Assembly: GCA_905178155.1 (NCBI GenBank)
Contig: CAJINV010000006.1
Coordinates: 1,799,876-1,863,875 of the forward strand
Reading direction: 5' to 3'
Origin: Amoebophrya sp. A120
Lineage: Eukaryota > Protista > Dinoflagellata
DNA: 64,000 nt
Under the pieces are notes generated by a model, which made no database searches, was not told where the DNA came from, and worked only from the letters and a program-made list of their open reading frames with translations. This document shows, piece after piece, positions 1-47,900 of this stretch. Position numbers and translations under genes: made by a program. Numbering within the stretch: position 1 is the stretch's first letter; each line of letters starts with the position of its first letter.

Positions 1-94
1 GACGAGCCGGAGGCAAATCCCTATGTACAACCTCCACCACAACAAGCTGCACTTCTTACTCACGGAACGCCGGGCCACTTCAGCTCGTCTGAGA

Positions 95-960: not shown

Positions 961-3900
961 CTTTTCAGGATCTTCGTGGGTTCTCAGGGCGTCGTCTGTG
1001 GCCCGTCGTGCCGCCAGTAAACTTCGGAACAACAACTTTTCTACCCCAGCACAGCCCTTGCAGGATGAAAATAACAGCACCAGAGGACCTGCTCTTTCAC
1101 GACGACCACCGCATGATTTTTATCAGCCAATAAACCAACTACCAGGTCGTGGACCCCCGGTAGGAGGAGGAGGAGGAGCAGGAGGCGCTCATGCTCAACC
1201 CCCACACCACCACCTCCCGTCAGCGACTGCGTATGGCGCAGCGCCCGGGCGGCAACCGCGTGGTGGTGGACTGCAAGAACTGCAAGCGGCAGCAACAGCT
1301 TCTGGTGTAGGTTGCACTTCTACGAGTACAATAAGCGGTGGGCAGCATGTTGTGTTTTCCGCACTGCAGCAACCCCCGGCGCAAAAAGGCGCCTCTCTAT
1401 TCGGACCAAGTACACTTACACAAAGTACTAGAGGGCTACACCGGCACATGTTACCGCCGCCGCTGGTGCCGGCGGGGCAAGTGCAACCAGGCCTTCCTGG
1501 CGGTAACAGCACTAGCAGCACCGCGGAAGGAGCTAAAAAAAATTTCCAGGAAATTATACCTGGTGTAGTACTACAAGAACCCTCGTCAAGTTCTTTCCCT
1601 TTCTCTGGACCTTCGCAGATTAAACCCAGCTCTGCTTCTGCTGCTGTCGTGCAGCCAACTAGATTTGGAGGTAGTAGCGCCTCTAGTGGGGCTGGGTTTG
1701 GATCATTTGGTAATCATAATCCCGCTGTAAAAATAAAACAGCAGCCGTCAACGCCCGTCGCTCCATTCGGTGCCGCTTTTGGAGGACCTAGTGCAGCTGC
1801 TGCGCCGACGTCGTTCTTTGGGGGTTTCGGCAATTCAAGTAGAAATGCCACTGCTAGTGGAACAAACATAGCGGTGGGGAATGCGGCGGCGCCTTCCTTT
1901 GGCGCCGCAACACCGGGTATTAACAAGCAGGCAACTAGTTCAAGTGGAAGTGGTTTCATCTTGTCCGCACCACAAGCGCAACAGCAGTTCGGCAGCTTCG
2001 GTGCGACGACGACGAGCACTAACACTGGCCGCACCACCGGATTTGCATTTGGCAACACGAGGACAAACAACGCTTTTAATACCAACCAGCCGGCGCAGTT
2101 CAACCAGTCGACCTCGCAATTTTTCCAGTCGACCTCGCAATTCGGACCAGTGCAACAACCACAACTAGGAAAAAGCGGAAATAATGTTACAGTGAACAAC
2201 AAAAATAGCACCACAACACATCCAGCTGTTTCACACCTACTACAGCTTGGGGCCCCGATGAGGAACCTGTACGAGAAGAATGTTCGCACGGCTGAACAAG
2301 AAATAGCGGAGATGCTGGGCGACAAGTACGTGAATGAAAGCGAACTGATGAACCGCCTACAGGTCTCCACCATGCGGCTGCTCTGTCGCGAACTGAAACT
2401 GACCATGGGCAACAGCAAGAGAGAGTGCGCGCTCGCCTTATCGGGTAAGGTTTTGCGGAAACGGGTGAATGAACTCGCGCGGGACGGGTTCGGTGGGGGA
2501 GTGTCGGGTGGGGGATCGACGACCTTCTGGTGGGCGCGGGAAGTAGTCGGGATAGGAGGTGATGGTGCTCCTGACAAAAGCAGCACAGTAGGTGAGAGGA
2601 ACGACCACCAGGAAATAAATGCAGTGGATGCTAGTATTGGAGGTGAAGACCGTTTCAATATGTTTTCCAGATCACGAACTCTTGTTCCCTATCCTTCGTC
2701 ACCCGAGAGAACATCAAATAAAGCCCGGATGATGAGGAGATCCTACAGTCCGGAGATAGTGAAGTACCGAAACGAGTTCCACCAGAAGGTCACCAGCGGT
2801 TTCGACACGGGGCAAAAATTGCTAAAAGTCATCATGAAGTGGCTGGATACCAGCAAGGGCGTGCAACGCCCCCGGATCAAGCATCTGGGTTGTTGGACGC
2901 CAATGTATACAAATTACTGCCCCCCCACGGGAACAACTGGAGGAGGGGCTGCACCTACTACAGGTGGACCGATGCAGACACGCAGCTTTGATGTTCATCG
3001 CGGCGGCGACATTTTCGTCTGCGAGGGCACGAAAAAGCCGGGCATTCACGACGTGGTTGCGGGAATTACCGCGAACGGAGAATATCAAAAGGAAAAATCC
3101 CCCCTCCTCATATCAAAACGAAGTTTCTGATGCTGGATTTGCGTACACAAATCAGATTTGCTAGAGAGGACTGCAGGCTTAGGCTGAGCCTGAGTAGGGA
3201 GGTTTTGGGCTAGGCGTTGAGCATGGCAAACGTCAAGTCTGTGGGGCCAGCAGCATCACAAACCGCCTGCAGAATGCGGCGGAGCCTGTGGAGTTGCGTT
3301 CTTGCAAGACAGAGGCCATCTGTGGCCACAAATCAGTATTGCAAATTTTCTGAGACGTGCCTTTTCGTCATGGGGAGGCTTTTCCTTACGATAGAGAAAA
3401 GGTGGACTCCATTCCCTGGCTGTACGCCGAATGCACAACGTGCAGCGGGAAACAGGACAGCCTGCTGAGTAACTTTGTCAACTACAACATGCGCGGCGGG
3501 AAGTGGTTGGCGAAAACCGGGTTTGCACAGCTGGAAAGTTTAAAATCTCCGCGTTTACTGCTGCTCTTCCGGCCGCGGATATGCATTGCAAATATCCCTG
3601 GATGTCTGGAAGGATGGAACTTGATGTGATGCGTCTGGTGGATCACACAAATTTTATCTGTCTTGCGTGATCAACAATGAGGCCCTTTCCTGACCAGCAT
3701 GAGAGGGAATCTTTCATGCAGGACAGGCATGATAGAGACCTCGCAGATGAATCTGTCATGCTATGTCCTGCATTCCAGACCGTATGGGGCATGGAAAGTC
3801 TGCATGACAAGTTTGCACTCTTCCAGACATCCAGGGATATTTGCACTTAATAGCGGAGCGTCGCCGACAACTTCTGCTGCGAGTTGCTGATTGATACCGA

Positions 3901-6900
3901 TTATGAATTGCAAAATCACCGTACCTACTCGTAGTAATTCCATTTTATATATGCATTACAAATCTCTTTCTGAAGGTAAATCAGCATTACAAATTAAATT
4001 TGTAATGCTGGGCTAATTTGTAATGCAATTTATACGTAGAAGTACGATGGTGCTTTTGCAGTTCATACCGATTCGGAAGAAGGAAAGCGGTGGATGGAGT
4101 ATTTTCTTCTGGAAAAATTTCAGTTCTCAGAACAACAGCCAGAACTTGGCGTTGTACAGCAGCGGGGAACAGAAGTTGCACTTCCGCAGGAACAGCGCGG
4201 TCTTGTCTCCAATACAGACCTACCATCATCTGGCATAAGCGCAGCAGCAGCTATTGGAGCTCCGGATCATCTTCATGTGAACAAGACGTCCACTGGGACG
4301 AGCTCTTTCAAGGATTATCTGCGTGTGGTGCACAAGAATGTTGTTCCTCCGGCGACCACTTCGGCCAATCAAAGTCTGGCATCTGCTAGTTCAACATCCG
4401 CCCAATTCTTTTTCAAGCTCCAGGATTACGACCAGGTTTTGCGCATGCTGCAAGAGTTCGTTTCCGACAAGTGGCTCCAGAAATGGCGGTGGTGGAAGAT
4501 GAGACCGCAGAACGAAGTTGTTATACACCACGTTGACCAGGGGAGGGCTGCGCCTTCCGTAGAAGTACGACACCAACCCCATGCTGCTCAGCAGGGAGGG
4601 ACGGTGCTGTTAAACACTGGAGCTGTACCTCCATCCAGTGCAAACGCAATGCATCAGTTTCAGCCAAACTATAGCTATCCAAACAGTAACTCCGCGCCCC
4701 ATCGTCGATATAATCTTCATGCTGGTGCGGGTGCGCCACCGCATGTTGTTCACCAGAGCTATGAACGGCAAAAGTATCGTACTCGTATAAATGCATTACA
4801 AATTTCCTCAGCATGAGAAATAAAATTTATTGTCATGCGGATTTACCTTAAGGAAAAAATTTGCATAACTGTGATTACTACGAGTGCGATACTTTTGCAC
4901 AGGATAAGAGTGCAACCACCACAACAGCCTCGTCTGCGCAACCGGCCGCATCGTCCTCTTCGACTTTGAAGCAGATTCCCGCCCATGAGCTGTGGGACAG
5001 AATCTGGATCGACCCGATTCCCGCCTTGCACTTCGAATTGCTGAAGCGGGACACCAGTTTGTTTGATGCGAGCAACAGAAGCAGGGCCTCGTCGAGAGCC
5101 ACGAGTGTGCTGGAATTAGTGCTGAAATTTTGCAAAAAAGTCGCGCACTTGAGTTGTAGTGTTTCGGAAAACACAGACCCGGGTGAGGAGGACATGAATT
5201 TGGAGAAAGTGCAAGAAAATAAAGATGACGTTCTTGCACATCAAGTTCTACATCTCTCCTTCAAGGAAAAGCTGACAAGGGCCCGGGAGCAGTTCATTGA
5301 GAACCACCGACATCTCAGCCTCGGGACAGACACAAACGAGATGGAGAACAATGTGGCACTTTACCATGTATGCATTGCAAAGGTACCGTACTTGTCCCAA
5401 TTGCAAATATGCATTTACAAATCTTCTTCTTAAAGGAAAATCCGCATTACAAATTCAATCTGTAATGCTAAGTCAATTTGTGATGCAATTTATACTTAGT
5501 ACGATGTTTTTGCAATGCATACCATGACATTCTACTGGACATTGATTCCTATGTCCGACAGCTCTACGACTCAAAAATCTGGACCCGCCTGGCCCGCTAC
5601 CAGCGCGAGGGGGTGCTGAGGATGTTGAAGACCAACAACTGTCGTGCGATTTTGGCGGACGACTGCGGGCTGGGGAAGTCGGCGCAGGCGCTGGCGACAC
5701 TGGCGGCTTTGCCCGCGGCGGAGGCTTTTCCGTATCGAAAGGAAACATCCCCCGTCCCCATATCAAAACGAAATTTCTGATGCTGGATTTGTGTGCACAA
5801 ATCCGAGCTGTCTTGCTGGAGAGCACTGCAGGCCCATACTAAGTGTGAGTAGAGAGGTTTTGGCGGCCTAGGCGCTTAGCATCAAAAACCTCCGTGCTGT
5901 AGGCCCAACAGCATGACAAACCGCCTGCACAATGCGGCGGCTGTCTGTGGAGTTGTCTTCTTGCAAGACAGACACGATTTGTGACCACAAATCAGCATCA
6001 CAAAGTTCCACAAATATACCTTTTCAGTATGGGGAGGGGGGATTTTTCCTTTTGATATCCCGGTGTTGATCATCTGTCCCGCGAGCTGCAGGAACACCTG
6101 GGCTATCCTGTGCAGAAGTATCGTACTCATATTGCAATCATGCATCACAAATCTTTTTCTCAAGGCAAATCCCCATTACAAATTTCATTTCTCATGCTGG
6201 GGAAATTTGTAAATGCATTTATACGAGTGCGATACTTTATTTGCAATGCATATGGGCGCTGGAAATCGAGAAGTGGTTATCGCCCTTGTTGAATCCGCTG
6301 GAAGTGTTCTCGACGAGATCGGGCGCGTTTGAAATCTATCAAGTGCAATAAATATGTCTGGGTCTGGAAGATTGCAAGAGTTGTCATGCTAGTCTGGCAT
6401 GACTCTGCACTCTGTATTGCGTGGCCACAAACAGCCTCTCTCGCCTGTCATCTCATGCCGCAACGCAGTTTCTCATGCGAAATACGCAGCACAGAAGCAC
6501 GAGAAAACTTGTCATGCTTGGCTGCACATTACAATTCACCTATTGATCCCTGACTTGCATCACAAGTAGCCAGACCCAGGCATATTTGCAATGCATAAAA
6601 TCTTTGAGGAGTATCGGAAAGCGGAAAAAACCGCGAAAGAGCGCAACGACCCGGAGTATTTGAGCTCCAAGAAATTTGTCTGCATCACCTCGTTATCCTG
6701 TGCAAAATTATAGTACTCGTACTAATTGCGTTTATGCATTACAAATTTCTTTTTCAAGGTAAATCAGCATTACAAATAATGCTGGGCTAATTTGTAATGC
6801 AATTTGTGCTAGTACGATGCTTTTGCATTGCATACTCGTACCACCTTGCTTCCCGCTGCCAGGACCAGTTTACGCAACACAAATTTCATCATTTCCCCTG

Positions 6901-9900
6901 CAAGCACAAACTGCATCACAAATTTCACCAATTTATTTGGAGCGCATCTGTCACTTGTCATGCTGAACAGGATTGGAGAAAAATTTTGTCATGCGGGAAA
7001 CCGCATTTTTATGTGCAGTACGGGAAAGTTAAAAAATTTACGTGTGGATCCTTTTCCACCGGATCCCGTGGAAATTCGCGATCGTGGACGAGATTCACCA
7101 GTTTCTCTATGCATTGCAAACACGTCGGGGTTTGGAAAAGTGCAACTTGTCATGCTGCCTCTGGACTCGAAAAAAATCTGTATAACTGCACGAGCAGCAA
7201 CAGGAACCCAGTTCATGCTGTGCGGAGATGGCATTTCTAATGCGGGGTAGGCATCAAAAAGCCCTCAAAAGATCCGTAATGCTAGGACATGCATCACGGA
7301 CGTCATGGGCCAAGCGAAACATGTGAACCAGTACACGAAGGGTACCCAATACGCGAAGGGTACCTACAACATACGAAAGGACCAGAATACATACGAAAGG
7401 AGAGAGGAGCAGCGAAATCCGCTATACAAAAAAGCAGTTTTTGTATGTACTGCCGGACGCAGACAACGGAGTTGTATGGTCCAAGAAAAGCGAGTAAAAA
7501 GCTGGCCGTGAGTGTGGCAGAGCAGCAAATTGCTACTCAAAGCAGGCCACAATGCACCGCGCGCGAAAAAATCGCTCCGCGGAACAACAGAAGAGCGCAA
7601 AAGGGGGCTTGCGGAGAGCGCACTGCGCACAAGGAGCGACACAAGCGGAGAAAAGGGGCGCTAAACCAAAAAAACTAGCGGCGCGCGCGCGGTGAGGACC
7701 TATTGCGGATCGATATTTTGTTAGCAGGCGGTGGGGGCACGCTTGCAGGCGGCGCTTCGAAAACATACAAGGGCCGAGCTTGTTTCGTGTGCGCGCTTTG
7801 GTAGCTAGCAGAGTTATCTCGCTCCTTAGCACTCTTGCTGCAGAGTCTACTGAAAGTGGAGAAGACCGAGGTGTAGCTCATCTTTTTTCAATGTTATTCA
7901 CTGAGTGGCTGTTTTGTTTTGGCTACGCAGCCACGTATTGCAGTCGGACAAAACCAGGGCAATAAAAAACGAGGGCGCAGGGGCATCGTAGGACCAGTTG
8001 CGTACTACGGGGCCCCGAGTAGTTACTGGGGGCCCCGTACTTGACGGCCGGGCCAGTGCTGGAAGGGTCCGGCGGGACCAGAAGGGGCCAGACAAAATGG
8101 CCATTTTATATGCACTGGCGATTTGTATGTGGCGTTTGTTCTAGGACAGGAAGGGGCAGGGCCCTTCGTGTACTGGCATACAAATATATTATGGGGGTAT
8201 CAGTAATTACTGGTTCACATGCATGATAAACCAGCGCGCTTTTTCTTTTCCAGACCCAGACGCTTTTGCAATTCATATCCTTTGTCCGGAGCTGAAATCG
8301 AAGTACCGGAGAAACCAAGCGATCGAGGAGTGGAGAACGCAGAGTCGCGTGGCCCAGGTGGATCGCAACCGAAACGGGGGTGACATCTCGAATATCCGGA
8401 AGCACACGATGGAGCTATTAAAGCGCATGTCGAAGATCCTGCTGCTGTCAGGGACGCCCCTAGGCTCCAGTAGCAGCGTCTCTGCGATTTTTGGAATCGC
8501 GCAGCTGATCGGAATCCCCATGACCAATGAGGGTGCTGCACGTGTTGGCGCAAGTGCTTTGATGTCCTCCCCGACCTCGTTTTCAAAGGACCTTGTCCAA
8601 GTGGGACCAACGAGAATTCCAAACTTTTTCGACACCCTGAACGAGGAGCACTTCCTAAAACGCAACTGGGACCTGTGCGAGCACACGTGCGAACGAGCCG
8701 ACGAGCTGGCGTACCTGTTTCGAAATTACCTGCCCATTATCCGCCGCGAAAAGCACGAGGTGCAGGGCGAAATCGCACGGTTGCCGCCGTATTTTACCAA
8801 AGTATATCCAATGCAATATAGTACGTCTGGGTCTGGAAGGATGCGAGGTTTGTCATGTTCGTTCGGCACGACCGAAGAACTTGTGATGCGTGTCCAACTA
8901 GAGACCCTTTGTTTTGCTTGTCATCCAAAAAACGCAGCTTGTCATGCCGAAACTGCAACACTAAGAAAGCAGCGCAGATACTTCCCATGCTTGGCTGTGC
9001 ATTACAGAGCATTCACTATTCTGAACTCAGCATTACAAGTTTCCAGACCCAGGCATATTTTCTCGGAATAAAGTAATTCCGGTGAAAATTTCCAAGGAAG
9101 TGTTTGACTTCGTAAACGACTTACGCCCCGAGGTGGTGTTTCTAGAGGGAGAAGAGAGCAACTACAATACAGGGAACAACGCAGGAGATACAAACAAGAG
9201 TGCAGTTAATTCCGGAAGAGCAGCAGCACAAGCTGCAGTCGACAAGACAAATTTCGTTATCGCGACCGAGTATGAGCGTACCGGGTACATGAAAATCCGC
9301 GAGCTGTTTGCCCAGTACAAGAAAGACCCGTCCCATGGCACGGTTTCTGCGGGCGCCGCTGCAAACTCGGAGTCCTTCGCCTCAAGGGGTTTGTACGAGT
9401 GGCTCAAAAGCGACATTTTCGGGAAAGCGAGAAACCGCCGGAACAGTGTGGGAGAGACAGTGGAGGAGATCGGTCAAACGTTAGAAGATGACAGTGATCC
9501 GGAGGACCAGGACGCGGACCGTTTTGGTTTTCGCTCTCAACCTGAAGCAGCTGGGCGGCATGATACAACTGGCCAGAACACCAATACACGACAGCACGGA
9601 CCACACGGAGTAGAAAATAAATTCTCAAACCGGCACAAGAAATTCATTTTTTTCACGCGTCACCACCGGGTCACCGACTTTCTCGCACAAGTCTTGCTGG
9701 AGTTGCGACACTATGAACTGCAAAAGCCAATCGTGCGTAATAGTAATCGCATTACAAATTTTCTCAGCATTACAAATGGAACTTGTCATGCCGATTTACC
9801 TTGGGATGGAGATTTGTGACGCATAAATGCGATTACAACTACGAGTGCGGTACTACTTTCGCACAGGATAGTCACAAGCTCCGTATCGACGAGATCCGAC

Positions 9901-12900
9901 AGATTGACGGTAGAACGCCAGAGCAGGATCGCAAGGAGACGGTCGAGGAGTTATCAAATGCAAATATGTCGTCCTCTGGGTCTGCCGGGTTGCCGCAACT
10001 TGTGATGCGTATTTTGGATCGGACGAAAATCTGTCATGCGTGGACAGCAAAAATAACTTATGATCTGTCATGCGTGGGCAGCAATAATAATAGCTTACTT
10101 CTCGTACTCGTCACCAAAATCTGGAATTTCTTATGCGGGATTGTAGGCATTGGGGAAGCTCGTCAAGACCTGTGATGCTTTTGCTCGCATGCCAGAGCTT
10201 CTTGGTCACGCAAAAACAGCATGACAAAGTCAAAGTCCGCACTCTTCCAGACATCCAGGGATATTTGCTGTTGATAGGAATGGTTCGCGCACGAGGACTA
10301 CGCCGAGGAGACCCTGGCTCTGGTTTGCGGTCAGGAAGTATCGTAAGGAAAAATCCCTCCTCCCCATATCGAAAAGGAAATCTGTGATGGTGATTTGTGA
10401 CCACAAATCAGCTTTGTCTTGCGTGCAAGGCAAAGGGCACCCATTGGCGCATTGTACAGCGAGTCTATCCCGCGTTTTCGCCTATGTCAGACTTGTTTCG
10501 CATGCTCAGCTGCTAGCCGGATGCGTACCCAAATGGGCTTAGAATATGCCGACACGCTCTCGCTGCAATACAAAGTGCATTGGTGTACACAAATCCAGCA
10601 ACGCAAATTGTCTATTTGACTATGGGGTGGGGGCTTTTTTCACTTTGATAGGAAGCCATGGGGACGGGAGTCAACGGGCTGCAGATTTCTTCCTGTGCGA
10701 TTTTTGTGGAAATTCCGCTCTCCGCGGACCTATTTCGCCAGTGCTTCTCGCGCTTGCACCGGCATGGGCAGAAGGCGAAGCAGGTGGACATTTTCGTTCT
10801 CTCCGCGGAAATATCCTGTGCAAAAGCATCGTACTCGTACTAATCGCAGTCCTGCAAGACAAATTTCTTTTTCAAGCTAAATCATCATGACAAATTCCAT
10901 TTGTCACGCTGACCTAATTTGTATTGCAATACTACGAGTACGGGACTTTTGCAATTCATAGGAAAACTCGAGCAGTATCGACGGGAGCTGTGTCGGCGAC
11001 GGCATTGAGGACCGAACCCGCTGGGAAACGATTTTGGATCAGCAGGGCAAAAGCTCCGACTTTTTCTACAAATTCGACGACACTCTAGTGCCGGCGAGTC
11101 AGCATCTTGACGGGGGTGGGGGAGGTACGCAAATATTGAATGCGACAAGAAGACCCGACGATCAAGATCATCCTGGAGCTTCAACATTATGTGGGACGAC
11201 TGGATCAATGCTACATCCAGTGGTCCCAGCGGCACTACACCCAGGTGGCAGTGCCTCGATAACAACGACCTCCTCGCAATTCGTTGCGCAAAATAATAGC
11301 CTCCACCAACCCGCCCAGTTCCTCCCTTGTGGTCATCCACCAGCGACGGCCGTTGTTGCGGCACAATTCTACTCAGCTGCGCCGGGTCGTTCTGCTGTTT
11401 CCGCGCATCAAGGTGGGACGTCCAATCCGACCGCCCATCTCTCTGCCGCCGCCGAACAACCTTCTGCGGCCGCAAGGAGAACAAGCAAGAACTACACAAC
11501 TACTGCAAACGATAGCAGAAGCGGGGTTTCGAAAATCCAGGAGATGAAGCTGAAAATGGATTCCGCTCTGCGGATAGCCTCGAACGCGGAGAAAGCTGTC
11601 TACGAGAAGCAGGAGTTGAAGCTGCGAGATATGGGATTCTCAAACCTTACATTCTCAACTGTTTACATGTTTTATTTTTGTCATGCAAAATTACCATCAG
11701 ACAGCATCGAGATCGACGCGATCAATGAGTACTTCTACTTCGCATGACGAATAATTATTGGTTGAAGCGCCGAACATAGCATGGAGATTGATCTGAGCCA
11801 AATCTGTCGTGCAAGACGCGCAAGTAGTTTTGTTTGCAATGCACTTGTTTTGTTATTCCTGCATCTTCACAAATTTATGTAAGCACAAACAGTTGAGAAC
11901 GTAACGTCTGAGAACGCCATATGGGAGAGAAACCAACTGCGCAGTGGAGATCCTGCTTCGTCCGGCGACTTGCAGCGGCAAAAGTGGATCGACAAGTTGA
12001 ACTTCAACGAGGACAACTACCGATTCCTCGTGCACCCTCTGACAGAGCACTTGCACATGTTTGAAGTGCTGGCCCCAGAAGATCATGTTCTACTTGACGA
12101 AAAGAACGGAGCTCGTTCAGGGAGTGCGGTAGTGGGGAGCTACAACAAAGACGAGGAAGGAGGAGCAGCGTCTCCAAGCGAGGGACCACCAGCACGCGGG
12201 GACAATCATTTCATAGCTGCGACCACAACGTCGACATCATCCACTTCAACCACGAACCAGGTTTTGGAAACCATCGACCACAGCTTTTGTTTTGACAGCC
12301 AGGAATCCCGGGTGCTGCTCGATGTCGGTCAAGAAATATTAAGCCAAGAGCTCGTCGCTTCGCAACCTCCGCCGGGCGAGGTGGGTACAAAGCAGGTGGG
12401 CAGCGGTACTGCAGCTACTGCACCTGTTCTTTCCGCTGACACGACGACGGTTGGTAGCACGACCAAGGCACGTCACAGGAGAGTGACGAAGCGACTGCGG
12501 TTTATTCGGTACTTTTCGCAGGTTTCCAACGCGGATATCGGGGAAGCGAGGGTGCGGGCGGAGGTCGCGGAGGATAGAGATACCGGTCGTGTAGTGGCAC
12601 CATCGGCGGCTGGTGGTCGTGCAGATACTGGCGATGCGATCAACACTAGCAACGGGACAAATCAGGACGAACGAGATCATCTTCCGTCGTTGCAGATCCA
12701 GCAACAGACCGCCAAGAATGAATCCGATATCAGGAATATCCAAGAAAAAAACATTGTAGGTGTAACTTTTTTGGAGGAACAGCATTACAAATTTGTCTGG
12801 CATGACAGCAAAAACCTGTCATGCGCGGATAGTACGGCAAAACGCCCTTTAATGGACCCTATGATGCACGCCAAGCATGACAGACGCAATCATCTTGCGT

Positions 12901-15900
12901 GTTGCGCATCACAAATTTACACTAACAACGTTTTTTTCTTTGATAAGGAACTTCCTGCTCCTCACCCTCGCGCGCGATTTTTATGACCTGCTCAAATCGG
13001 TTACCATCTCAAATCGGTTACCATAGAATCTGGATTTTGTCTTGCATGAACAGCATGAGAAACCAATAGAGGGCTCCGCTTGCTGCAATACAAATTTCGC
13101 CAGATTCTCATGGGGTTTGAAGCTCCGGAACTTCTCATGCGCAATCCTATGGGACTAGACTAGATCATGCACTTCTTGCATCACAAATTTCCATATTCTA
13201 TTGTAGCGTTTCAGATTGTAACACCTGAGCAGGTTATAATTTTTGGGACACGTTTCTCCGCATTCCGGGTATCCGCAGGTGCGAGGTGGCCGAGTACCTG
13301 ACCGCGAAGGAGCTCGTGAAGTTCCTGCCGAACTACTGCGGAACACAGGAGGCGCTGAAACGGTATGAACTGCAAAAGTATCGTACTCGTAGTATTGCAA
13401 CACAAATTACCTCAGCGTGACAAAAAGATTTTATTTGTCATGCTGATTTAGCTAGAAAATGAAATTTGTCTTGCATGACTGCGATTAGTAAGTACGAGTG
13501 CGATGCTTTTGCACAGGATAAACGGCCGGACGGAACAAAACTGTACCTAGACGACACGGACGAGAACAGGCTGGCCCGATTAAAGGATACGCATCGCAAG
13601 AAATATGTCTGGGTCTAGATTTGTGATGCGAAATTTGAAGGACAGCGAGGAGATCTGTAATGCATGAATGCGATGGTCAGGCGGTTTTTTTGTTGTTGTA
13701 CTGTAAGCGAGTTTGTCATGCGTTTTGCAATTGGATCGTGCAAATAAGCCTTGCGAAACTTCTGATGCTGTTATGCCGTACAACACTGGGACACTCGACG
13801 AGTTTCAGCAACACAAATTTGTTCCAGACCCAAAAATATTTCCATTTGATAAAGGAGAAGAACTTTGTAAACGGAGAAATCTGCGAGGAGAAGATGCGAA
13901 TGATCAAAGAGAAGGGACTGGAAAAGGTAAGTACAAGTAGCATTGAAAAGGAACCAGGCCCCGGAGGGGCGAACGAAGGAGATCATGATCATGATGGAAA
14001 AAACACAGTAAAGACATCAAGTGGGCCGCACCTACACGACGTCGAGGGATCCTCGAGCCGGCACCCGGAAGAGATGAATAACGAAGTGGACGAGAACATC
14101 AAGCAAAGCAAAAGACGCAGGCTTTCATCGGATAATATGGAACAAGGTGGACCAACTTTCGTCGACATCCGTTGGACGGAAGCAAAGCTTCTAGCCCGCG
14201 GACACCAAATGGGAGGGAATTCCAATAACCAGGGTGGAGGTGTAACAACTGCTAGAGCTGGAGGTCCGGCGTCATCTGGAAATCCAAATCCACCTGGTGA
14301 TAATGATCATAGTTCCTCTCTTGTTAAAGACAGCACCAACACCAATACCGTCCTTGTGCCCTTCTGCCGCACAACGAAGTCGCTGTATTGCAGCAAGGAA
14401 TCCTGCTTGAAGTTTGCGATTGCGCACGACCCCGAAAAGTGGGAGAATTGCCGCGGTGCGGAAAATAACAACTGGATCGTCTTCGGGCACTGGAACGTCA
14501 TGTACTGCAGTGCGAAATGTTACGAAGACACCCGGCTGACCGTGTCGCGTGCGGAAGGCAGGGCGCAGTGCTGGCGGTACGAAAGAGGCGTTTGTCAGGC
14601 TTGTAGGTTAGACACGGAAAAGTTGCGCGAAGCCTTGGTTCGCAAATTCCGTCCGATGGCTACGTTGACCGATTTGAGTTATCGAAAGCAAAAATCCCCC
14701 CTCCCCATATCAAAACGAAATTTCCGATGCTGGATTTGTGTACACAAATCCGCGCTGTCTTGCTGGAGAGCAATTCAGCCCCATGCCAAGTGTGAGTAGA
14801 GAGGTTTTGCTGGCCTGGGCACTTAGCATGAAAAACATCCGCGCTGTAGGCCCAACAGCATGGCAAACCGCCTGCACAATGCGGCGGTTGTCTGTGGAGT
14901 TGCCTTCTTGCAAGACAGACACGATTTCTGGCCACAAATCAGCATCACAAATTTCCAAAATGGGGAGGGGGAATTTTTCCTTTTGATATGAGTCGCACCT
15001 TCACCGCGGAGGGGCTGTTACAGGGGTGTGTGGACGAGAACGTGGACGAAATAAACAAGGGCAGTGTATTATCAAAAGTAAAAATGTCTGGGTCTGGAAA
15101 CTTGTGATGCTGGGTGGCGTCTCATGATGAGGCTACAAATGCTGGCTCAGCATGACAAGTTTCTGAGCTCCTAGGTGTTGCCTATTCTGCATGACAAACT
15201 GCGCTTCTGCATCACAGAAAAACGGAGCTCTTGAGTAACGTGCATGACAGATTTAAGAGGCGTACCAGACAAGCAAAACAAACGTGAATTCTTCCAGACC
15301 CAGACATTTTTACATTTGATATGTATTTTTCGCGGATGACGGAGGTGGAGATGACAAGTTGGATGAACCAGCAGGAGAAACAGGTGATAAAAGCGACGTT
15401 GACGAAATACAGCTAGATGAAATGGCAACAAAAGCAAAACCAAGAGAAAACGAGACGGAAGCGGAGAGACTGCAACGGGAGTTGGATGAGGAGCTGGGAT
15501 TAGGCGGCAAGGATGATCTTCAGCGCAACGCGAAGAACGACATCAACTCTTCCGCCAGCGGCGCTGCATCAAGCTCTTCCTCTGCTGCGATAGTACAACA
15601 TAACGGCGGAAACAAGCGCGCTGCCGGTGGTACAAACAACAGCAAGGCAAGGCCGAAGAAGAAGCCGAGGCACTTCAAGAAAAAGACGAATCGGGCCGCG
15701 AAAATAAATCCGCATGATTTCTACTGGGATTTAGAGAACGATGATGCGGATCAATATTTCGAAAAGCCCGTACCGGAGGCATGGAACTACAATTTGAGCA
15801 CGATATCGCAGCACGAAAAAAGTGTCACAGTTACACAATTGTTGTGAATTCAGCAACACAAATTTTTTCTGCATGAGAGAAAAAGTTTGCAATGCAGAGA

Positions 15901-18653
15901 ACATAAGGGAAAACACGTTTTGAAATGAGGCTCGCAAGCATTTTGCGCATGACAGAGCGTGTCTCTGTTACTTGGTTTGCAGCACTATGTATAACTGTAA
16001 CACTTTTTTCTTTCCATACACGAAGCAATGGCGACATTACCTAACCGAGGTCATCACCGGCCGTGCGCATCGGTCCGGACTGCTAAATCCCCTGTGGCAG
16101 GCGGACCACGTTTTAGGGGTGATGTTTGGGGGCGGACAGTGCAAGAAGGACAATTTCCAGACCCTCTGCATCTCCTGCCACTATCAAATGCAAAAGTGTC
16201 TGGGTCTGGAAGACCGCAGAAGTTTGTCATGCTGTTTTTCCGTGACACGAAAGTTCTGGCATGGAGGCCCTAGCACCACAGGTCTTGAGAAGTAGGCATC
16301 TCAATGCCTAATCCGCATGACAAGTCCCCTCTTTCGGTGACACAAAGTGGGCCACTTTTGCTGTCCGCGCATGACAGATTCTCGTGTGGTTTGAAATGCG
16401 CATGACAAGTTCGCATCCTTCCAGACCCAGACATATTTGCAATGCATAGCCACGCCAAGAAAACGAAAGAGGAGCAGGCTTTGAGGAAAGAACAGAATCT
16501 AGCCAAGAAAAAAAAGGCTATCAAAAGTAAAAATGTCTAGGTTTGGAAGAATGCGCGATTTGTCATGCAGCTTTTCCATGACCCATGAGGTCTGGAATGC
16601 GAGACCCAGCATGACAGATTCTGTGCGACCTTTCTCATGCCTATCCTGCATGAGAAACTGCCTCCCGACTTGGTCAAAACTGGACGACTTTTGGTAATCA
16701 TGCAACACAGATTTTTGCATGCTGCAGATTTATCATGACAGGTTGCATTCTTCCAGACCCAGACATTTTTACACTTGATAAAGGCGGAAGAGGAACGACG
16801 GGAAAAAAAGCGAGAAGAAAAATTGCGTATCAAATGCGAATTTATATGTCTGGGTTTGGAAGAGTCGGAGTTTGTAATGCTAAATCTGATCGACGCAATT
16901 TTGTGTACTGTTGCATGACCAGGAAAACAAGAAGCTTGTCAAAACTTGTTAAGATGCTAGGGCCCGTACTATTCCAAATCTTCCTGGCCGTGTGCAACCT
17001 GCATGTCAAACCCCGTTCTCTTCCAGACCCGCGGACGTATTTGCAATTGATAATGCGGGAGAAGGAACAAAAGCTAGAGATCGGCGGAAAAAGAGCGGAC
17101 GAGGGCATGGATAGTGCTAGTGCAGCTCCTGTGTTAGTTCAACACGAATTGAAAAACGTCCCCACCACGACAACGTCGACCACTACGAAGCGCGGCCGCG
17201 GTAAGAAAGGCAAAGGGCCGCCGGCGAAAGTGAAAAAAGAAGAACTGGCACAGCAACTACATCAACCAGAACGGAACCAGAAAGAGCAACATGATTCCCG
17301 CGGACACCACCTGCAGCAGCTTCAGCACGACGATACCAGCGTTTTTGGCAGGTTTTTGATGGAACAGCAGAAAAAAGAGGCGGACGAAGCACGGGCTGGA
17401 ACAAGCGGTTTTATTTGCCGTGCGGATGATGAAGATGACGCAGCTGCTTCTGCTTCGGTGCATGAGTATAATGATAATCTTCAACATCATGAGCCGGCAA
17501 CTCATCAGGGAAGCAGTTTAGTACGACCTGCTCAGGGCAGCTACCAAGTAAAGAGCAGCAGTAGCAGCAGCAGCAGCAGTTTTGTCGTAGATCCTGCAGC
17601 TTCCGCCAGACCAGGAAGTCCTGCGGCGCTAGAAAGAAATCCGAACGTCGTGGTACCGCCAACGATGAACAAGCGGAAACGCGATGAAAGACCGGAAGAT
17701 GGTGTTTTGCATGGAGCAGAAAATCACGGTCAGGAGGAGCGGAAGCAAAAGCGAGAACAAGCAGCAGGAGTACAGCGATCTTCTTCGAAGCAGGGACGAG
17801 ATCGTGAGCCTCCTGGAAAAATAAAAGTGGACGCGAGGAAAAACGACGATGGTTCTACTTTTCCAAGTCAACCGTCAAATCCAGATAGCATTTTCGACCG
17901 CTTTCGGAAGTCTACTAAGTCGAACACACCCCCCGAGCAGGAGCGAGCCGCTGATGTGTTGCGTCAAGGCACCAACAAGAAGCTGTCGGCAGCTGCTGGT
18001 GCTGCTAAGGCGAGTAAAGCGACCACAAGACCGTCGCGTATAGAAGTCGCCGAAGACCCCGAAGCAGTTCCAGTTCTTATTAGGGTGCAAAACTTCCCCT
18101 CCTCGTCCTCATTTGTAGTATGGCATGAACATCAGCAGCAGATGAAAATGTAAAAACCAGCTTTCGCACGACATTGTAGTGCTGTGTGGGCGAGGACCAA
18201 AATCTGTCAACATGCAATCAGTGCCAAGAGATAGCATAGATAGTGGGTCAACGTCAAGTAGGTATTTTGCATGACAAATTAGGGGGAGGGAAAGTCCTCG
18301 TGCACCGCCATAGCTCCGTCCACCCGTCGACGAGGTGCTGGGAAAAAAACAACGTCCGAACAAGCGGGACGACCTTCTCACGGCCGTGGTTTACATGTGA
18401 AACAGGACGAAGAACACGAGGTGATTGACTTGATCTCCTCGTCCTCCGACTCTGATAACATCATCGTTATGAGCGATATCCATTGCAAAAGTATCAGTAT
18501 CGTACTATTACAAATTGCATGACAAATTTGGTCAAAACGAGAAACGCAATCTGTCATGCAGATTTAGGTTGGGATGAGCCACACGTGTCATGCGTGGCTG
18601 CGATCAGTTGTACGAGTGCGGTACTTTTGCAGTGGATAAGCGACAGTGAGTAA
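947..18653 (+). CDS. ZRANB3: ZRANB3/SMARCAL1-like SNF2-family annealing helicase with C-terminal HNH endonuclease, ~3,300 codons, split by 29 non-canonical TIR introns; true start uncertain and possibly upstream of the window
   Basis: Removing each element plus 5 nt gives 9969 nt (3323 codons) open from 947 to TAA 18651-18653. Reconstructed motifs: LARYQREGV, AILADDCGLGKS (I), FPVLIICPAS..W (Ia), AIVDEIH (II), LLLSGTP (III), KFIFFTRH (IV), IDGRTP, QCFSRLHRHGQ (VI), YCSAKC..ERGVCQAC and WQADHVLGVMFGGGQCKKDNFQTLCISCH (HNH, as in ZRANB3). Elements: 3083-3393, 3580-3852, 3902-4067, 4760-4906, 5369-5521, 5733-6057, 6104-6252, 6337-6597, 6694-6834, 6871-7050, 7108-8277, 8805-9070, 9712-9870, 9952-10276, 10339-10650, 10812-10960, 11630-11921, 12737-12945, 12982-13238, 13364-13520, 13588-13851, 14680-14988, 15070-15321, 15804-16018, 16182-16448, 16519-16780, 16828-17052, 18078-18312, 18477-18638. 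Possible AG acceptor TCTTTTCAG ending at 969. Confidence 0.9.
7324..8217. mobile_element. Non-autonomous TIR element (~0.9 kb) nested in the family A introner 7108-8277
   Basis: Perfect inverted repeat CATGTGAACCAGTA (7320-7333) / TACTGGTTCACATG (8208-8221). Subterminal repeats TAC.CGAAGGGTACC and CATACGAAAGGA. The host consensus AAACATGCATGA is split at this point. Confidence 0.8.
12982..13238. mobile_element. TIR introner family H
   Basis: TATGACCTGCTCA...TGAGCAGGTTATA, TSD ATTTT. A related copy at 31642-31974 shares the internal CTAGATCATGCAC..CTTGCATCACA. Confidence 0.82.
14680..14988. mobile_element. TIR introner family C (~310-325 bp)
   Basis: TIR TATCGAAAGCAAAAATCCCCCCTCCCCAT...ATGGGGAGGGGGAATTTTTCCTTTTGATA, TSD TGAGT. 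Other copies start at 3083, 5733, 10339, 49249 and 62873. Confidence 0.92.
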
Positions 18654-19619
18654 AAACAAGTCCTGCAGCAGCTTCTTGTGAAACACGACCCAAGGGTTGC
18701 AGTTACAGTGCACGCGCTTCCCGAATTCCATGCAGTACTATCCCTCTGAGAAAATAAATGTTGACAGCACTACGACTTCATCCTTGGTGTATATTTGTTC
18801 AGTTGTTCTGTCCTTCTCCTTGCCCTATTGAAAAGAGTAGACACTATGCGGAAAGTCGGTTGGCAACTTCCTCTTGTCGTCCAAACATGAAATATTGTTA
18901 ATATGACTGCGAGAATTTTACTCGACGTCGTTGAGCAGTACAACTATGACTTCATCTGCATTCTCGGTTTCGCTGCTTCAGACCTGCTTTCCCCGACGTA
19001 TTTTCGTGGTCTGTCGGTCATCATCTTTTGGTTTACTTATTTGGCCCGCAAAATTGAGTGACGTACTATCATCGGTCGTATTTTTCTCTTCGTTCTTCTG
19101 CAGAGCAGTTTTTTCGTACTAGTGCAATTGTAATGCTCATCGGTGTTGGTCGTACCTTGTTGCTTATCGCGGCGCGAACTACCCGTGTATGATCGTATGT
19201 CTTCGTACAACCGGAACCGTGGTAATTATAGTCGTGACAACCTGTAGAACAAGAAAACAAGAAGCAGTAAAAACTTATCTCGTCGGTTCGACGTGCACGT
19301 TGCTCGTACATCAAGTACCTAGAACTACTGGCCGTTGCTCGTCCGGAGTCACAAGTTTCTTGTGACAACTTCCAGCACCAGCGTATGACGTGGAGCGCTG
19401 TATCTCATGCGTCTTTTTCCACAAGCAAACGAATTTGAATTTCTTACAACTCTCAGGAGCTTCAATCGCCAAGCTTTGAATAAACAAAGTTTTCGGTCGA
19501 CGACGCCCCTCTCCTACAACAACTTTTTAAACTCCTTTAAACAAGCATCGAAGAAACTTTTTCCGTTACAACCGCAAACAACTTAAAGAACTTTTTCAAA
19601 AACAAATCACAATTTCCCT

Positions 19620-24300: not shown

Positions 24301-24717
24301 ACAGTGACCGGGGAAATGGGGTGGGGAGCGCTGCAACGGACTGAGGGAAACGGCAAAGCGCGGGAAGAGTGGGAGAAGAAGCTGCCAGAAGTCTTTCACG
24401 GTGCCAGGAGCCAGCCGGAAGCTGGCCCAGTTTTCGTTGCGAGGCCGGTCGGGGCACCACAGCTAACGACGACCGGGAAGGCCGCTCCACCGCCTTTCAC
24501 GCTGTATGTCTTCACCGATCCAAACGGGGACCGACAGTATGCCGTCACTGATCCAAAACCAAAGGCCCACAACGAATCCATGATCCAAATTGGGACGGCC
24601 CGGCCGGTTCACGCTGAAACCCACCAGGCCGCGCCGGATTCTGATTCTTCGTTTTTGGCAAGGTTTTCGCATGTTTTCAGTTCCGCGGCCGCGGCCGGCT
24701 CGCCGCTGTATGTCTAG
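21369..24717 (+). CDS. Putative secreted protein of unknown function, ~430 aa, two exons (21369-21687 and ~23747-24717)
   Basis: Signal-peptide-like start MARRGLFLASAGCLAVFGAEA. Perfect GTAAGT donor at 21688. Phase-compatible acceptors CTGTAG (23746) or GGCAG (23752) join it in frame to the globular-looking 3' part of ORF 22852-24717 (MAARDTHH...SPLYV). No family recognised. Confidence 0.55.
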
Positions 24718-39200: not shown

Positions 39201-40577
39201 CAAAAATCTATTCGAAGTCGAACTGCATCAGTCGCAGCTTACTCCGACCGATTTTTCTGAATGAGAGGAAGAAAAATGACTCCGCTAAAAAACCGAAATC
39301 ATATCCATATGCAAACCATAATCGAAACAGCGCCGCTAGTACGACTGCTCGTCCGGGGCCGGACGAGGCCGAACGGCTTGAGCAAGACGAATATGAACTG
39401 CAAAAGTATCGTACTCGTATTATTGCAGTCATGCATTGCAATTTTTTTTCCGAAGGTAAATCCGCATGACACTAATGCTGTGGAAATTTGTAATGCGTTT
39501 ATACGAGTACGATATTTTTGCAGTTCATAACCAGGAACAAGATGAAGCAGTAGCAGGACAAGGAACGACAGAGGAAGCTGTACTTGTTGATAATGATACC
39601 ACCAGCGCGGAGGTAATGATACAACCGGTCCTCGAGAGGACCACATCATCAGAAGTAGGAGATGTTGAACCTCCGGAGAAAAAAAAGAGAAAGAAGAAAA
39701 AGAACAAAAATCCAGTTGCCGAAACGACCACTGATGAACATGATCAAACGCCGGGGGTTGAGGAAGTAGGTCGCGCGCACGATCCTGTACACCAAGAAGT
39801 AGTAGTTGACGATCAACAAGCCGGAGGACAACGACAAGACGAATCCATATCTGCTCCAAACGTGGTCAACACCGCGACTGGCACGACAAACAAGAAACGA
39901 AAACGGCGGAACAAATCTACCGCTGTTGATGTGCAGGAAGACGTGGAACTCCCGGGAGGGGAAGCTGCAGCAGCAACCACGGGAAGTGGAGCGGAAAACG
40001 AAGGCACGAGGAGTAAATCGACGCTGCTTGCTAAAAGAACTTCGTTTCTATCCCTTGCTGGTGAAGATCTTACAACAATTTTCTAGCTTCGAGCACGAGC
40101 TTTACGAAGCTGTTTGCCCATGAATTGTTCGTTTATAGATTCGTTGATCATGCTTCGTTTTCTATCACTGCTTTTCGTTTTCCTTCCAACAGGTATTGAC
40201 AATCCGAATCCTGTCGAACCAAACTCCGAGAATGCGGGCTCGGCTTTGGGAGGTGGAACGCACGAAACCACCGTGACTGCAGCAGGGAAAAAGAAGAAAA
40301 AAAAGAGCAGTAAAGGGCCGAAAGGTAAAATTCTCTTTGATCACATTCTTTATAGTGGCAGCGTGAGCGTCCAGTTCACCTTGCGTATGCATGTTGCACC
40401 TGACAATAAAAACGACCAAACCCAGATGACCCCAGTGCCAGTATGATTCCGGCAGACGAGCGTGAAGACCAGGACCTAGTACCACGGATTGACCACGGCC
40501 ACGACCTTCAGGATAGAGAACCTGACGCGGACGTTGCCGCTTCGAAGCCCAAGAAGAAGCGCAAGAAGAATCAGTGA
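27261..40577 (+). CDS. Large acidic, low-complexity coiled-coil protein with poly-Lys NLS-like tracts, function unknown
   Basis: Frame is traceable from ATG 27261 across elements 27392-~27682, 27789-27998, 28034-28351, 28394-31588, 31642-31974, 32571-32788, 32836-33104, 33231-33375, 33422-33696, 33743-33881, 33917-34142, 34234-34386, 34501-34709, 34858-34998, 35622-35783, 35876-36140, 36293-36544, 36592-36741, 36861-37031, 37206-37433 and 39392-39529. Probable GT-AG introns at 38502-38647, 40013-40192 and 40325-40455. Ends KPKKKRKKNQ-TGA. Junctions near 37514-37785 and 38745-39250 are uncertain. Confidence 0.7.
28626..28830. repeat. 41-bp tandem repeat, ~5 copies
   Basis: Unit GACGCCGTCTCAGTGCGTTTCTAGCTGGAAACCCA(C/G)CTAG; copies start at 28626, 28667, 28708, 28749 and 28790. 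Confidence 0.85.
29481..30033. other. Assembly gap (N run)
   Basis: 553 Ns. The same C-rich repeat CCCCCCCGCGCCCCCCCGCCCTTTCGA.ATGATGA.ACTGCGCCCCAATC lies on both sides. Confidence 0.99.
30205..30537. repeat. Degenerate (A/G)AGATT microsatellite followed by TGAATTATTCA repeats
   Basis: AAGATT/GAGATT tract at ~30205-30445, then six TGAATTATTC copies at 30444-30537. Confidence 0.85.
30668..30860. repeat. 92-bp tandem duplication with a GC hairpin
   Basis: Two near-identical units starting at 30668 and 30760, each containing GGGGCGGAC-AGC-GTCCGCCCC. Confidence 0.9.
31258..31396. repeat. 13-bp minisatellite, ~10 copies
   Basis: Tandem array of AGGTCACCTGTCA. Confidence 0.92.
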
Positions 40578-44918: not shown

Positions 44919-47900
44919 ATGGCCGATTCAGTCTGGGACAATTTCGATGCCGACTTTGAGTCTGCGCCACCACCGATGAAGCCGCAGCAGCCTGGTATGC
45001 AGTGCAAAAGTAAGTGGTACTATCGCTGTTATGCCTTTGTAGCAGGAGGAATTGCATGACAAATTCACTTTTTCCCCGAAGAAGAGAAAGTCGTATAAAT
45101 TTCTCATGCGCTTGCGCGCACCAGAGAAAAAATAAAAAATGATTTGTGAATATGCGAGAGCGATGTGTAGTACTTTTGCAAACCATACCTGATCTCCTCG
45201 CCACTGGTGGTGCAGCTACATCCTTCGCCGCGTTATGAAAGTGCACAACTCCCTCGCCTCCCCCTCATTTGTAATACAACAGCATGAACGGCAATAGTGC
45301 AAGCATCAGTAAGAGTGCCGGTTTTGCATGACAGATTTGCGCTGGAGTGTAGTGCCCTTTGTGCTACCAGAACTTGTCATACTAACAGTGCCATCAAGAG
45401 GCAAAGCGTCGATTGGGTCTTTTGCGTGAGAAATGAGAACGAGGGGGAGTTGTGCACTGTCATACGCGTTCGACAATGTCGACAACCAGAGCACGACGTC
45501 AGCCAGTGGAATATCAAAGGTAAAAATATCTGGGTCTGGAAGACTTCGAGACTTGTCATGCTGCTTTTCCATGACCCATGAGGTCTGGAATGCAGGACCT
45601 CGCATGACAGATTCTGCGAGACCTTATTAATGCTTATCCTGCATGAGAAACTACCTCCCGACTTGGTCAAAACTGGACGACTTTTGGCAATCATGCAACA
45701 CAGATTTTTGCATGCTGCAGATTTAGCATGACAAGTTGTAATCTTCCAGACCCAGACATTTTTACATTTTATATGGAACCGAGAGCCTCGGTGGATTTGG
45801 AATGATGAGCGACAGTATGATAAATCCAGCGGAAAACGGCGGTTTCGGCGTTACTGCCACAGGAAACAACGGCTTCGATAGCCTTCCATCTTCGAACGCG
45901 TTCGACAACGCCTTTGACACGTCAAATTTTTCGACCGGCTTGACACCCATGGGCGGTGGGGCCGACGATGCAGCTTCGGCCAATTTCGGCTCTTTTCCGC
46001 CAACTTTCGGGTCGTCAGCCAACGGGGAAATCGTTGGTGGGGTTAGCAGCGTGAAGCTCCTGGAGCTTGAGAAGACGGTAAGTATTTTTCTAGATCTGTT
46101 GCGATTGTGTTTTTCTTTTTATCACCGTTGTATGAATTTTTAAGCAGACCTCTCGCACCAGGAGAACATCATCTTCGTCCTCGTTCACCAAGCTCTATGT
46201 GTCCACCTCACATGCTCTTTTGCGTTTTAGTCTTAGTTTCATTGATGGCCAACCTTTAAGTTTCAACACTGACTCCCCGTAGAAGTATCTTCACGACACT
46301 AGCACTACAAAAAGCAGAAAGAAGTACAACCCTACTTCTATCAGGTAACCGACCTGCAGTCGCAACTCTCCCGCACCCAGTCCGAGCTCTCGCAGACCCA
46401 GTATGACAGTGCACAACCCCCCCTCCCCCTCATTTGTATAGCATGAACGGCAATACAAGCATCAGCAAGAATGCCGGTTTTGCATGACAAATTTACACTG
46501 GAGTGTAGTGCTATTTGGGCTACTCCAGAACTTGTCATGCAAACAGTGCCAATAGGCACAGCTTGCATTTGGGATTTTGCATTACAAATGAAGGGGAGGG
46601 GGAGTTATGCACTCTCATACCCAGACCCAGCTTTCCAACGAAAAACAGCGGTCGAATTCCGAAATGGAAACGCTGAAAGAGAAAGCGAGAAACGCTCTGC
46701 AGCTGAAAGAGAAAGAGCTAGAGGAAGCGCGATCCACTTCCACCTCGCAGGCGGCAGCCGCTTCTGGGATATGCATCGCAAATATGTCCGGGTCTGGGAA
46801 GTTGTGATGCACTACGATGGCTGAACTACGCTCTTGAATGTGCAGCCGCGCATGACAAAGTTTTGAGCTGCTATGTGCTGCGTAACTCGCATGGCAAATT
46901 GCGTTTGTGCATGACAAGCAAAAAGAGGTGCTTCTCCTACTCATGCATCACAGATTCAAGAGGCATGCCAGACAAGCATGACAAACTTGCACCTTTCCAG
47001 ACCCAGACACTTTTGCAGTTGATTTGGGAGGACGCAGAGTAACTCCTCTTTAACCGACGAGCAGTGGCAGCAAAAAGTGGACGAAATAAAGGAGAAGGCG
47101 AGAGCGAATATCAAATGCAAATATGTCTGGATCTGGAAGGTTGCAACTTGTGATGCTGCATTTGGATGCTACAAAAATCTGTATTGCATGAACAGCAAAA
47201 TAAGAGGGTCAGTTTTTGCCACGGCGAGAGGGTATTTCTCATGCGGTATCGACATGAGGAAGTCGTCACAAAATCTGTGATGCTAGGGTATGCGTCACAG
47301 ATGTCAGGAGTCACGCAAACGGTGCATGACAAACTTTGCATCCTTCCAGATCCAGACATATTTGCATTTGATACCGAAATTCCAGGAGCAGAACGAAGAA
47401 TGCGAAATGATCAAGACGAAAGCAAGAGAGGCCCTGGAGATGCGAAATACGAAGATCGCAGAACTCGAGAAACAGCTCGCAGAAGCTAATAGTGCGGGAG
47501 CCGCAGCTGCAAGTACTAGTGCAGGAACTCCAAGTGGTGGTGGTCCGAGCGAAGAAGAAATACAAAGCCGAATCTCCGAGGCGGTAAAAACCGCGGTTTT
47601 GGCCACAAAATCCGAGGCAGAAGCAGAGCTGCTACATCAGCAAGACCAGATTCGAACTGCGAAGGATGCGGAAATAGCCACGCTAAAGTCCGCGCTCGAA
47701 ACCGCGAAGGAAGAAGCTGCAGCTGCGGCGGTGAATAGTACAACTTCTTCTAGTACTAGCCTCCAACAGCAACAGGACCAGTTGGACGATTTGCAACAGA
47801 AATTGCAGGAAAAAACGAGTGAAAACGAGCAAATCAAGGAGAAAGCAAGGAGCAAAATCGGGGAATTAACGGAGGAAGTGGAGACGGTGAAACAAAAGGC

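Follow-up and report, generated by a model that had tools for sequence, protein, structure and literature searches.

The window analysed here is a stretch of 64,000 nucleotides from the dinoflagellate Amoebophrya sp. A120 (assembly GCA_905178155.1, contig CAJINV010000006.1, forward strand positions 1,799,876 to 1,863,875), and all coordinates given below are positions within it. It includes a ZRANB3-like gene (1448..18653, + strand) whose product combines an SNF2 ATPase with an HNH domain, a coiled-coil gene (44996..51322, + strand) and, between them, a gene at 31.6-40.6 kb. These genes are interrupted by short elements which start with TAT, end with ATA, have inverted arms of approximately 25-35 nt and are flanked on the outside by a 5-bp direct repeat. 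The elements lie in both orientations relative to the host gene. In either orientation they are removed exactly, together with five nucleotides and without GT-AG splice sites, and the cut falls after base 3 or base 4 of the duplication.

A motif scan of the window gave 59 candidate end pairs, 42 of them with a perfect 5-bp duplication. Thirty shuffled controls gave a mean of 1.9 end pairs, and 0.27 with a perfect duplication, so the pairs are not due to chance. With degenerate copies added by hand, the catalogue holds 81 elements. Statistics were calculated from 76 of these; the five left out (19794, 54752, 55439, 58655 and 59146) are outside genes with frame evidence, while those at 27392-27998 and 59500-63800 were kept and assigned to the + strand from short open frames only. 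The family names (A1 to G) and the orientation labels (F and R) were coined in this analysis. The end logos of the 76 elements read T76 A76 T72, with A in 62-69 of them at positions 11-14, and the duplication is perfect in 49.

A second data set was obtained by scanning metagenome contigs with the family-A arm motif. This yielded 148 loci (545 kb including overlaps), all from assembly JACKZZ01 and containing the same families as the window; they may or may not derive from the same strain. The loci hold 321 distinct elements (in the control, 126 in real loci and 0 in 30 shuffled loci). They provide evidence from sequence alone, with the gene strand taken from a codon model that made a call for 271 of the 321 elements. 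In a leave-one-gene-out trial on the window this model was right 43 times and wrong twice, with 17 uncalled, and calls within a locus agreed in 112 of 124 cases.

The base composition of the duplication is close to the exon background in both data sets. With terminal inverted repeats, a target duplication of fixed length, no coding capacity and insertion in either orientation, the elements have the characteristics of miniature inverted-repeat transposable elements (MITEs) and would spread as non-autonomous DNA transposons. No autonomous partner or transposase was found in the 545 kb searched: five longer end-bounded elements (L025, L047, L048, L071 and L073; 457-972 nt, with perfect 5-bp duplications) include no frame above 150 aa. 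The two arm motifs have no match among viral contigs.

Removal of 29 elements (782-18800), each with five additional nucleotides, restores the ZRANB3-like gene to a single frame of 3377 codons from 782 to a stop at 18651, with the first ATG, the putative start, at 1448. Removal with 0-4, 6 or 7 additional nucleotides breaks this frame. Eight would keep it, but this is excluded because the skips observed in RNA have the length of the element plus 5 nt. If retained, 27 of the 29 elements would add in-frame stops and the other two would shift the frame. The one match among 890 candidates is P0001, a EukProt protein of 1985 aa that has SNF2 and weak HNH domains; the product is collinear with it, in line with the ZRANB3-like label of the initial annotation. 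The boundaries of the elements at 6871 and 7108 were set partly by frame and homology and these two are therefore not independent support for the frame. The predicted protein exceeds 3100 aa, the length beyond that of P0001 including long low-complexity inserts.

Direct evidence of removal comes from contigs of four runs flagged as probable RNA, all from one sample; being contigs, they give no splicing efficiency. Three raw RNA runs (X9-X11) have only 7, 4 and 18 reads on 1-20000, the strain being absent, and were not used. In each of the four runs one contig of 4.7-4.9 kb skips 15 consecutive introns on 31600-51599 (a region with 15 joints listed of 45). These are 14 elements in a row in the coiled-coil gene (44996, 45234, 45512, 46402, 46770, 47109, 48171, 48388, 48856, 49249, 49720, 50160, 50663 and 50998) and a canonical GTAAGT...CAG intron (46078..46344, + strand). 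Since the canonical intron is also missing from the same contig, the contig is derived from mRNA. In the ZRANB3-like gene, run X1 gives three exact joints: 16176 to 16449 at an A1 element (16182..16448, orientation F), 18074 to 18315 at a family F element (18078..18312) and 18471 to 18639 at a family B element (18477..18638, orientation R). The other 12 of the 15 joints listed for 1-20000 connect element interiors and were read as contigs of other copies. Among the joints listed, 17 of 17 at elements correspond to exactly the element plus 5 nt. The canonical intron itself is bordered by a 5-nt direct repeat and, at 267 nt, is as long as family-A introns; it shows no similarity to the element families (score 38, against up to 44 in shuffles).

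The initial annotation had proposed that introns of one family sit in both orientations within a single gene and are removed regardless of orientation. The six family B copies on which this was partly based are indeed arranged in this way, three in one direction (6104..6252, 6694..6834 and 10812..10960, here F) and three flipped (4760..4906, 9712..9870 and 13364..13520, here R). With 35 nt trimmed off each end, the interiors of opposite pairs align better as reverse complements than forward (10812/13364, 80.5% vs 54.3%; 6104/4760, 75.6% vs 53.2%; 6694/9712, 64.0% vs 44.9%). The same applies to the two pairs then assigned to family A, 6337..6597 (R) with 15070..15321 (F) (63.1% vs 47.5%) and 9952..10276 (R) with 16182 (59.1% vs 50.4%). 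For the five pairs, z is 10.8-16.0 as reverse complements and 1.7-4.1 forward. All ten copies lie, as claimed, within the + strand gene whose SNF2 and HNH product and 29-element frame restoration are described above; 16182 is the only one with a direct RNA joint and the other nine are covered by frame restoration and homology. At 6104 (duplication TGGGC) the homolog is ungapped across the junction, with 15 of 20 columns identical; the duplication at 4760 is AGAGC/AGAGT.

Two details of this proposal need correction. Family A does occur in both orientations but is not one family: it consists of three subfamilies, A1 (9952 and 16182), A2 and A3 (6337 and 15070), each present in both orientations. 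In addition, the terminal word TATCCTGTGC cannot serve as a general orientation marker, as the elements at 50160 and 59832 start with TATCCTGTGC yet have flipped interiors. In these two (50160-50307 and 59832-59982) a flipped interior thus bears the terminal heptamer of the opposite orientation, and the right arm of the 9952-10276 element resembles the arms of the 3580 element. There are hints here of recombination or conversion between arms as the source of swapped end words.

Opposite orientations are also found within a single transcript contig in all four runs: family B at 48856 (F) and at 48171, 49720 and 50160 (R), A1 at 48388 (F) and 47109 (R), and A3 at 46770 (F) and 50663 (R). When orientation was scored against transcription across families, as had been suggested, it proved to be near 50:50 in both data sets. 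In the second assembly, 243 elements in nine families divide into 116 F and 127 R relative to the gene strand; the window counts are 37:27 (reference copies included) and no family departs from 50:50 (p = 0.15-1.0, window copies included). Orientation-independent removal is supported by RNA contigs, by frame restoration and by the balance of orientations.

The other elements of the ZRANB3-like gene are as follows. Family B is represented by 3902..4067 and 5369..5521 (both F), family C by 3083..3393 (duplication GAGAA), 5733..6057 and 14680..14988 (all F) and by 10339..10650 (R), A2 by 3580..3852 (R) and 16519..16780 (F), A3 by 8805..9070 (R) and family D by 12737..12945 and 15804..16018 (both F). 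At the single family E element (11630..11921, R), the left copy of duplication base 1 is exonic because the right copy would create a stop. Family-A-type arms are present at 13588..13851, which starts with TAC, and at 16828..17052; neither the latter nor 12982..13238 was assigned to a family. A decayed element with ends TAC...ATC (6871..7050) was delimited by hand from frame and homology. Finally, a composite element of 1170 nt (7108..8277) consists of approximately 216 nt of family A, approximately 900 nt of unrelated sequence and a 30-nt right arm. The frame still demands its removal with exactly 5 nt despite the unrelated insert, suggesting that removal depends on neither length nor interior.

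At the 17 RNA-joined elements, G[TCA]..AG is not available in any register. A GT-AG pair is possible in some register in one of the 76 window elements and in 10 of the 271 loci elements, and neither G at +1 nor AG at the 3' end is enriched in any register in the window or the loci. The elements thus do not have the GT or GC donor and AG acceptor of U2-type introns. The register (k, the duplication base after which the cut falls) can be read from mRNA where the two copies of the duplication differ, by observing which base is kept. In the family B element at 49720..49874 (R, TAC start; duplication GAGAG/GAAAA; joint 49717 to 49878) the cut follows base 3 or 4. The same result is obtained for the family B element at 39392..39529 (F; duplication ACGAA/ACCAG), where a contig piece starts at 39533 and an in-frame CAG at duplication base 5 is passed over. 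Since these two are in opposite orientations and both give k = 3-4, the register follows the transcript and not the element. The limits from other elements are 2-4 at 18078 (mismatched duplication), at most 4 at 44996 and 35622, and at least 1 at 47109. Duplication mismatches at base 4 are seemingly depleted in the window (p ~0.2, calculated by hand), whereas the loci show no such depletion (p = 0.49).

The two ends are not conserved in the same way. U and A are held at the 5' end, where variation falls on base 3; at the 3' end it falls on the last base, and the A third from the end is mostly held. In the window, base 3 accounts for all four 5' variants and bases 1-2 for all four 3' variants. 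In the second assembly, the 205 strict strand calls give variants at bases 1/2/3 of 0/1/6 for the 5' end and 7/2/2 for the 3' end (Fisher p = 0.013; p = 0.03 with all calls and p = 0.0007 pooled). As both ends share their sequence context, this unequal conservation points to a direction-dependent reading.

The initial annotation had concluded that recognition relies on a symmetric hairpin or on double-stranded DNA. The data do not force this conclusion. The ends are conserved according to the direction of transcription, and a terminal inverted repeat of 25-35 nt gives the transcript identical 5' and 3' linear sequences whichever way the element lies. Directional signals can therefore sit inside the arms, and orientation independence requires neither DNA recognition nor purely structural recognition. 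A hairpin probably helps, since every copy keeps an arm duplex. Nothing supports recognition at the DNA level.

Several observations concern the pairing of the arms. Each of the four 5' variants in the window disrupts the terminal pair (A-C), and G-U at bases 1-3 was seen 0 times; arm positions 4-7 are often unpaired. Among RNA-joined copies terminal mismatches are tolerated (49720 starts with TAC and 46770 ends with ATT). The cross duplex from 46770 to 47109 is as strong as the element's own duplex, yet the contig includes the exon between them; partners are therefore not chosen by pairing strength alone. There is no excess of G-U over A-C on the sense strand (98:110 in the window, 214:195 in the loci and 159:168 for single-arm changes), a test weakened because many changes may predate insertion. 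Family B alone gives 46:24 in the loci, but its single-arm changes, 29:14 and 11:11 by orientation, do not repeat this in both. Nor is sense folding more stable than antisense folding.

We lean, with modest confidence, towards removal by a relaxed U2-type spliceosome that reads N|UA at the 5' end, a branch-like A and a ruler at the 3' end, helped by the hairpin, with the arms supplying these signals identically both ways. On this model the cut would be after base 4 and the intron would start N-U-A-U/C: the canonical +2 U and +3 A would be preserved, and +1 would no longer have to be G. The A of the 3' arm's ATA, 7 (or 6) nt before the 3' cut, could act as branch point and, with a ruler, replace AG, and the arm-arm hairpin might pair the correct ends in place of U1 and U2AF. 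The directional conservation of the 5' UA and of the 3' arm's A would be at most an indirect sign of a lariat branched at an adenosine and of dependence on U2/U6.

Some published data are consistent with this model. Table S4 of PMC7789003 gives N-T as the start of each of the nine most frequent non-canonical splice pairs of A120 and TT as the start of nine pairs of strain A25; the A25 inverted repeat is described as beginning with TTA and two purines. These pairs may represent the same +2/+3 positions as here. U1 snRNA and snRNP27 are given there as undetected in A25 and A120, and loss of SNRNP27K is associated with +4 U in yeasts (PMC10581693). A precedent for removal of non-canonical transposon introns by the spliceosome is available from Fritillaria (PMC11282704 and bioRxiv 10.1101/2025.08.15.670264).

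A number of points weigh against the relaxed spliceosome or fit another route equally well. Published splice-pair tables depend on aligner choices within the direct repeat. With no enrichment of G at +1 or AG in any register, nothing is left of the usual step-2 contacts. The analogous Euglena introns have been argued to use distinct machinery (PMC12501133). A codon test of k = 3 against k = 4 gave 8 against 7; the same test recovered base 5 (right copy in 14 of 17) but not bases 1-3, and is hence weak. Among the 271 loci elements, variation at the candidate branch A is seen in 3, and only about half (147/271) have U two bases upstream of it. The arm duplex of the window copies (-12 to -54 kcal/mol) would suit a hairpin-led route just as well, and so would the arms changing together above expectation (47 against ~10), which subfamily structure can also cause.

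Such a route, a possible though less probable explanation, would be a non-spliceosomal, Euglena-like endonuclease and ligase guided by the hairpin, measuring from the stem base, cutting 1-2 nt before and 3-4 nt after it and joining the exons. It would account for the lack of any base requirement at either splice site and for the arm duplex in all copies (family-B copies fold arm to arm in five of six cases), and its geometry resembles the Euglena N3-CDG...CHG-N5-6 arrangement with its longer 3' overhang (PMC12501133). The failure to find U1 in A25 and A120 (PMC7789003) also fits, and such an enzyme could read the two strands of a stem unequally. It does not, however, predict the absence of a G-U excess, sense folding no stabler than antisense, or the terminal mismatches tolerated at 49720 and 46770, and with k = 4 the conserved 5' bases would coincide with the canonical +2 U and +3 A. 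We favour the relaxed spliceosome with a hairpin over this route.

Two other explanations appear very improbable. In the first, the joints arise when reverse transcriptase jumps over a hairpin from one direct repeat to the other, and the cell deals with the elements in another way (for example, by ribosome bypass). A hairpin with a short direct repeat is a classic setting for template switching, and the runs are contigs flagged only as probable RNA. Against this, some joints lie at repeats with no more than 1-2 useful bases in common (49720 and 39392), one contig in each of four runs skips fourteen elements, and retained elements would put stops in frame (27/29) or shift the frame (2/29). The second, to which we attach equally little weight, is excision from DNA before transcription through recognition of the double-stranded inverted repeat. 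The inverted repeats and target duplications are features of DNA transposons and orientation is unbiased, but conservation of the ends follows the direction of transcription and the elements persist in two assemblies. The probable-RNA contigs also hold element copies with their own flanks, although these could be DNA carry-over, and this lineage is not known to have a separate somatic nucleus. Least tenable, and already largely refuted, is the use of cryptic canonical sites in or near the duplication by each orientation, a possibility raised in the initial annotation and with a precedent in Polarella and Aureococcus introners (bioRxiv 10.1101/2020.10.14.339549): despite the few elements in which GT-AG is allowed, it is excluded by the 17 RNA-joined elements, which permit no G[TCA]..AG and are skipped as exactly element plus 5, and by the unused in-frame CAG at 39392.

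Other features of the window were noted. Elements at 19794-20066, 54752-55054, 55439-55647 and 58655-58843 are outside the gene models made here and may lie in untranslated regions or unmodelled exons. Three tandem 33-nt copies at 58925-59025 include the GCATGACA-type motif found inside elements. Within the 31.6-40.6 kb gene, 37500-40430 has several apparent canonical introns, one starting GTAT (38502), and contig pieces there stop at 38501 and 40012 and begin at 37797 and 40424; a candidate decayed element at 38617-39022 was discarded for not fitting the frame. Two GC-rich regions (22780-24717 and 52646-53860) have long overlapping open frames on both strands with no Pfam match, and a Pfam search of nine other window frames gave nothing beyond one weak repeat match. 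There is an assembly gap of 553 N at 29481-30033.

The evidence is about evenly balanced on a wider proposition: that in A120-type Amoebophrya a splicing activity with no base requirement at the junctions removes any TAT...ATA inverted-repeat cassette together with exactly 5 nt, whichever way it lies and wherever it sits in coding sequence, and that this activity measures its cuts from the arm motifs (N|UA at the donor and a branch-like A 6-7 nt before the acceptor). If this is true, the transposons are scarless on insertion and their removal would be the most sequence-free spliceosomal splicing described. With no constraint on target or strand, any exonic insertion can become a clean intron, which would explain the invasion of genes; other introners are limited to one orientation or to rare target sites. 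How Amoebophrya removes its non-canonical introns has been an open question since 2021. It can now be framed in testable numbers (orientation is irrelevant, the cut is fixed within one base and the ends are read differently), and these predict where the branch point should lie and which bases a reporter needs. If confirmed, they would permit the design of portable, scarless introns and provide a natural test of a spliceosome working without G+1 and AG.

Comparison with known systems indicates that the elements are very likely the A120-type introner elements of Farhat et al. 2021 (PMC7789003). They have a repeat starting with TAT, a 5-bp direct repeat at the borders, nine families and 17 non-GT-AG joints. 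That paper describes A120 introners with an inverted repeat of TAT, seven variable nucleotides and AAA, without GT-AG, and in many families forming hairpins and mixed with canonical introns in one gene; the direct repeat at the borders is defined there as 3-5 nt, and 5 bp is named in the legend of Fig. S19. There are differences. Arms are given there as 8-20 nt, whereas the paired arms here are approximately 30 nt, and the border within the repeat is called 'unknown' or 'variable', whereas here the register is limited to base 3-4. In the text of the paper that could be searched, 'strand' has 0 matches and 'orientation' is used for genes only, so that element orientation is not treated there; here it is near 50:50, and the ends are conserved directionally. 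For Amoebophrya, neither splicing independent of orientation nor a fixed register was found described in the literature searched, which was mostly open-access and did not include the Farhat et al. figures or the PNAS and preprint supplements.

The introners of Polarella glacialis and Aureococcus anophagefferens are similar in being DNA-transposon introns with target duplications, found in either orientation (Roy et al., bioRxiv 10.1101/2020.10.14.339549). According to the same account their GT/GC/GA and AG sites are supplied by the element or by a constrained target, and every Polarella class described in it is biased to one orientation. In the window elements, in contrast, the target is unconstrained, the sites are non-canonical and no orientation bias was seen.

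Euglenid nonconventional introns, as described in PMC12501133 and PMC11282704, share terminal pairing, direct repeats, a cut at a set distance, a longer 3' overhang and the presence of GT-AG introns alongside. They differ in having a CAG/CTG motif, a requirement for an exonic purine and reported circular products. The euglenid signature (N3-CDG...CHG-N5-6 with an exonic purine) is not seen here: the ends are TAT...ATA, the overhangs are 1-2 and 3-4 nt, and in the loci purines are about as frequent at the first exon base as in the background.

The MITE introns of Fritillaria borealis (Henriet et al. 2019, as covered in PMC11282704 and bioRxiv 10.1101/2025.08.15.670264) also have inverted repeats and duplications and are removed by a modified U2 spliceosome. 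Their preferred ends, AG-AC/AT, are described as coming from the repeats, whereas in the window elements the dinucleotides at both splice sites consist largely of random target bases. The element class itself is already known. To it the present analysis adds independence of orientation in the absence of canonical sites, a register narrowed to within one base and a directional reading of the ends.

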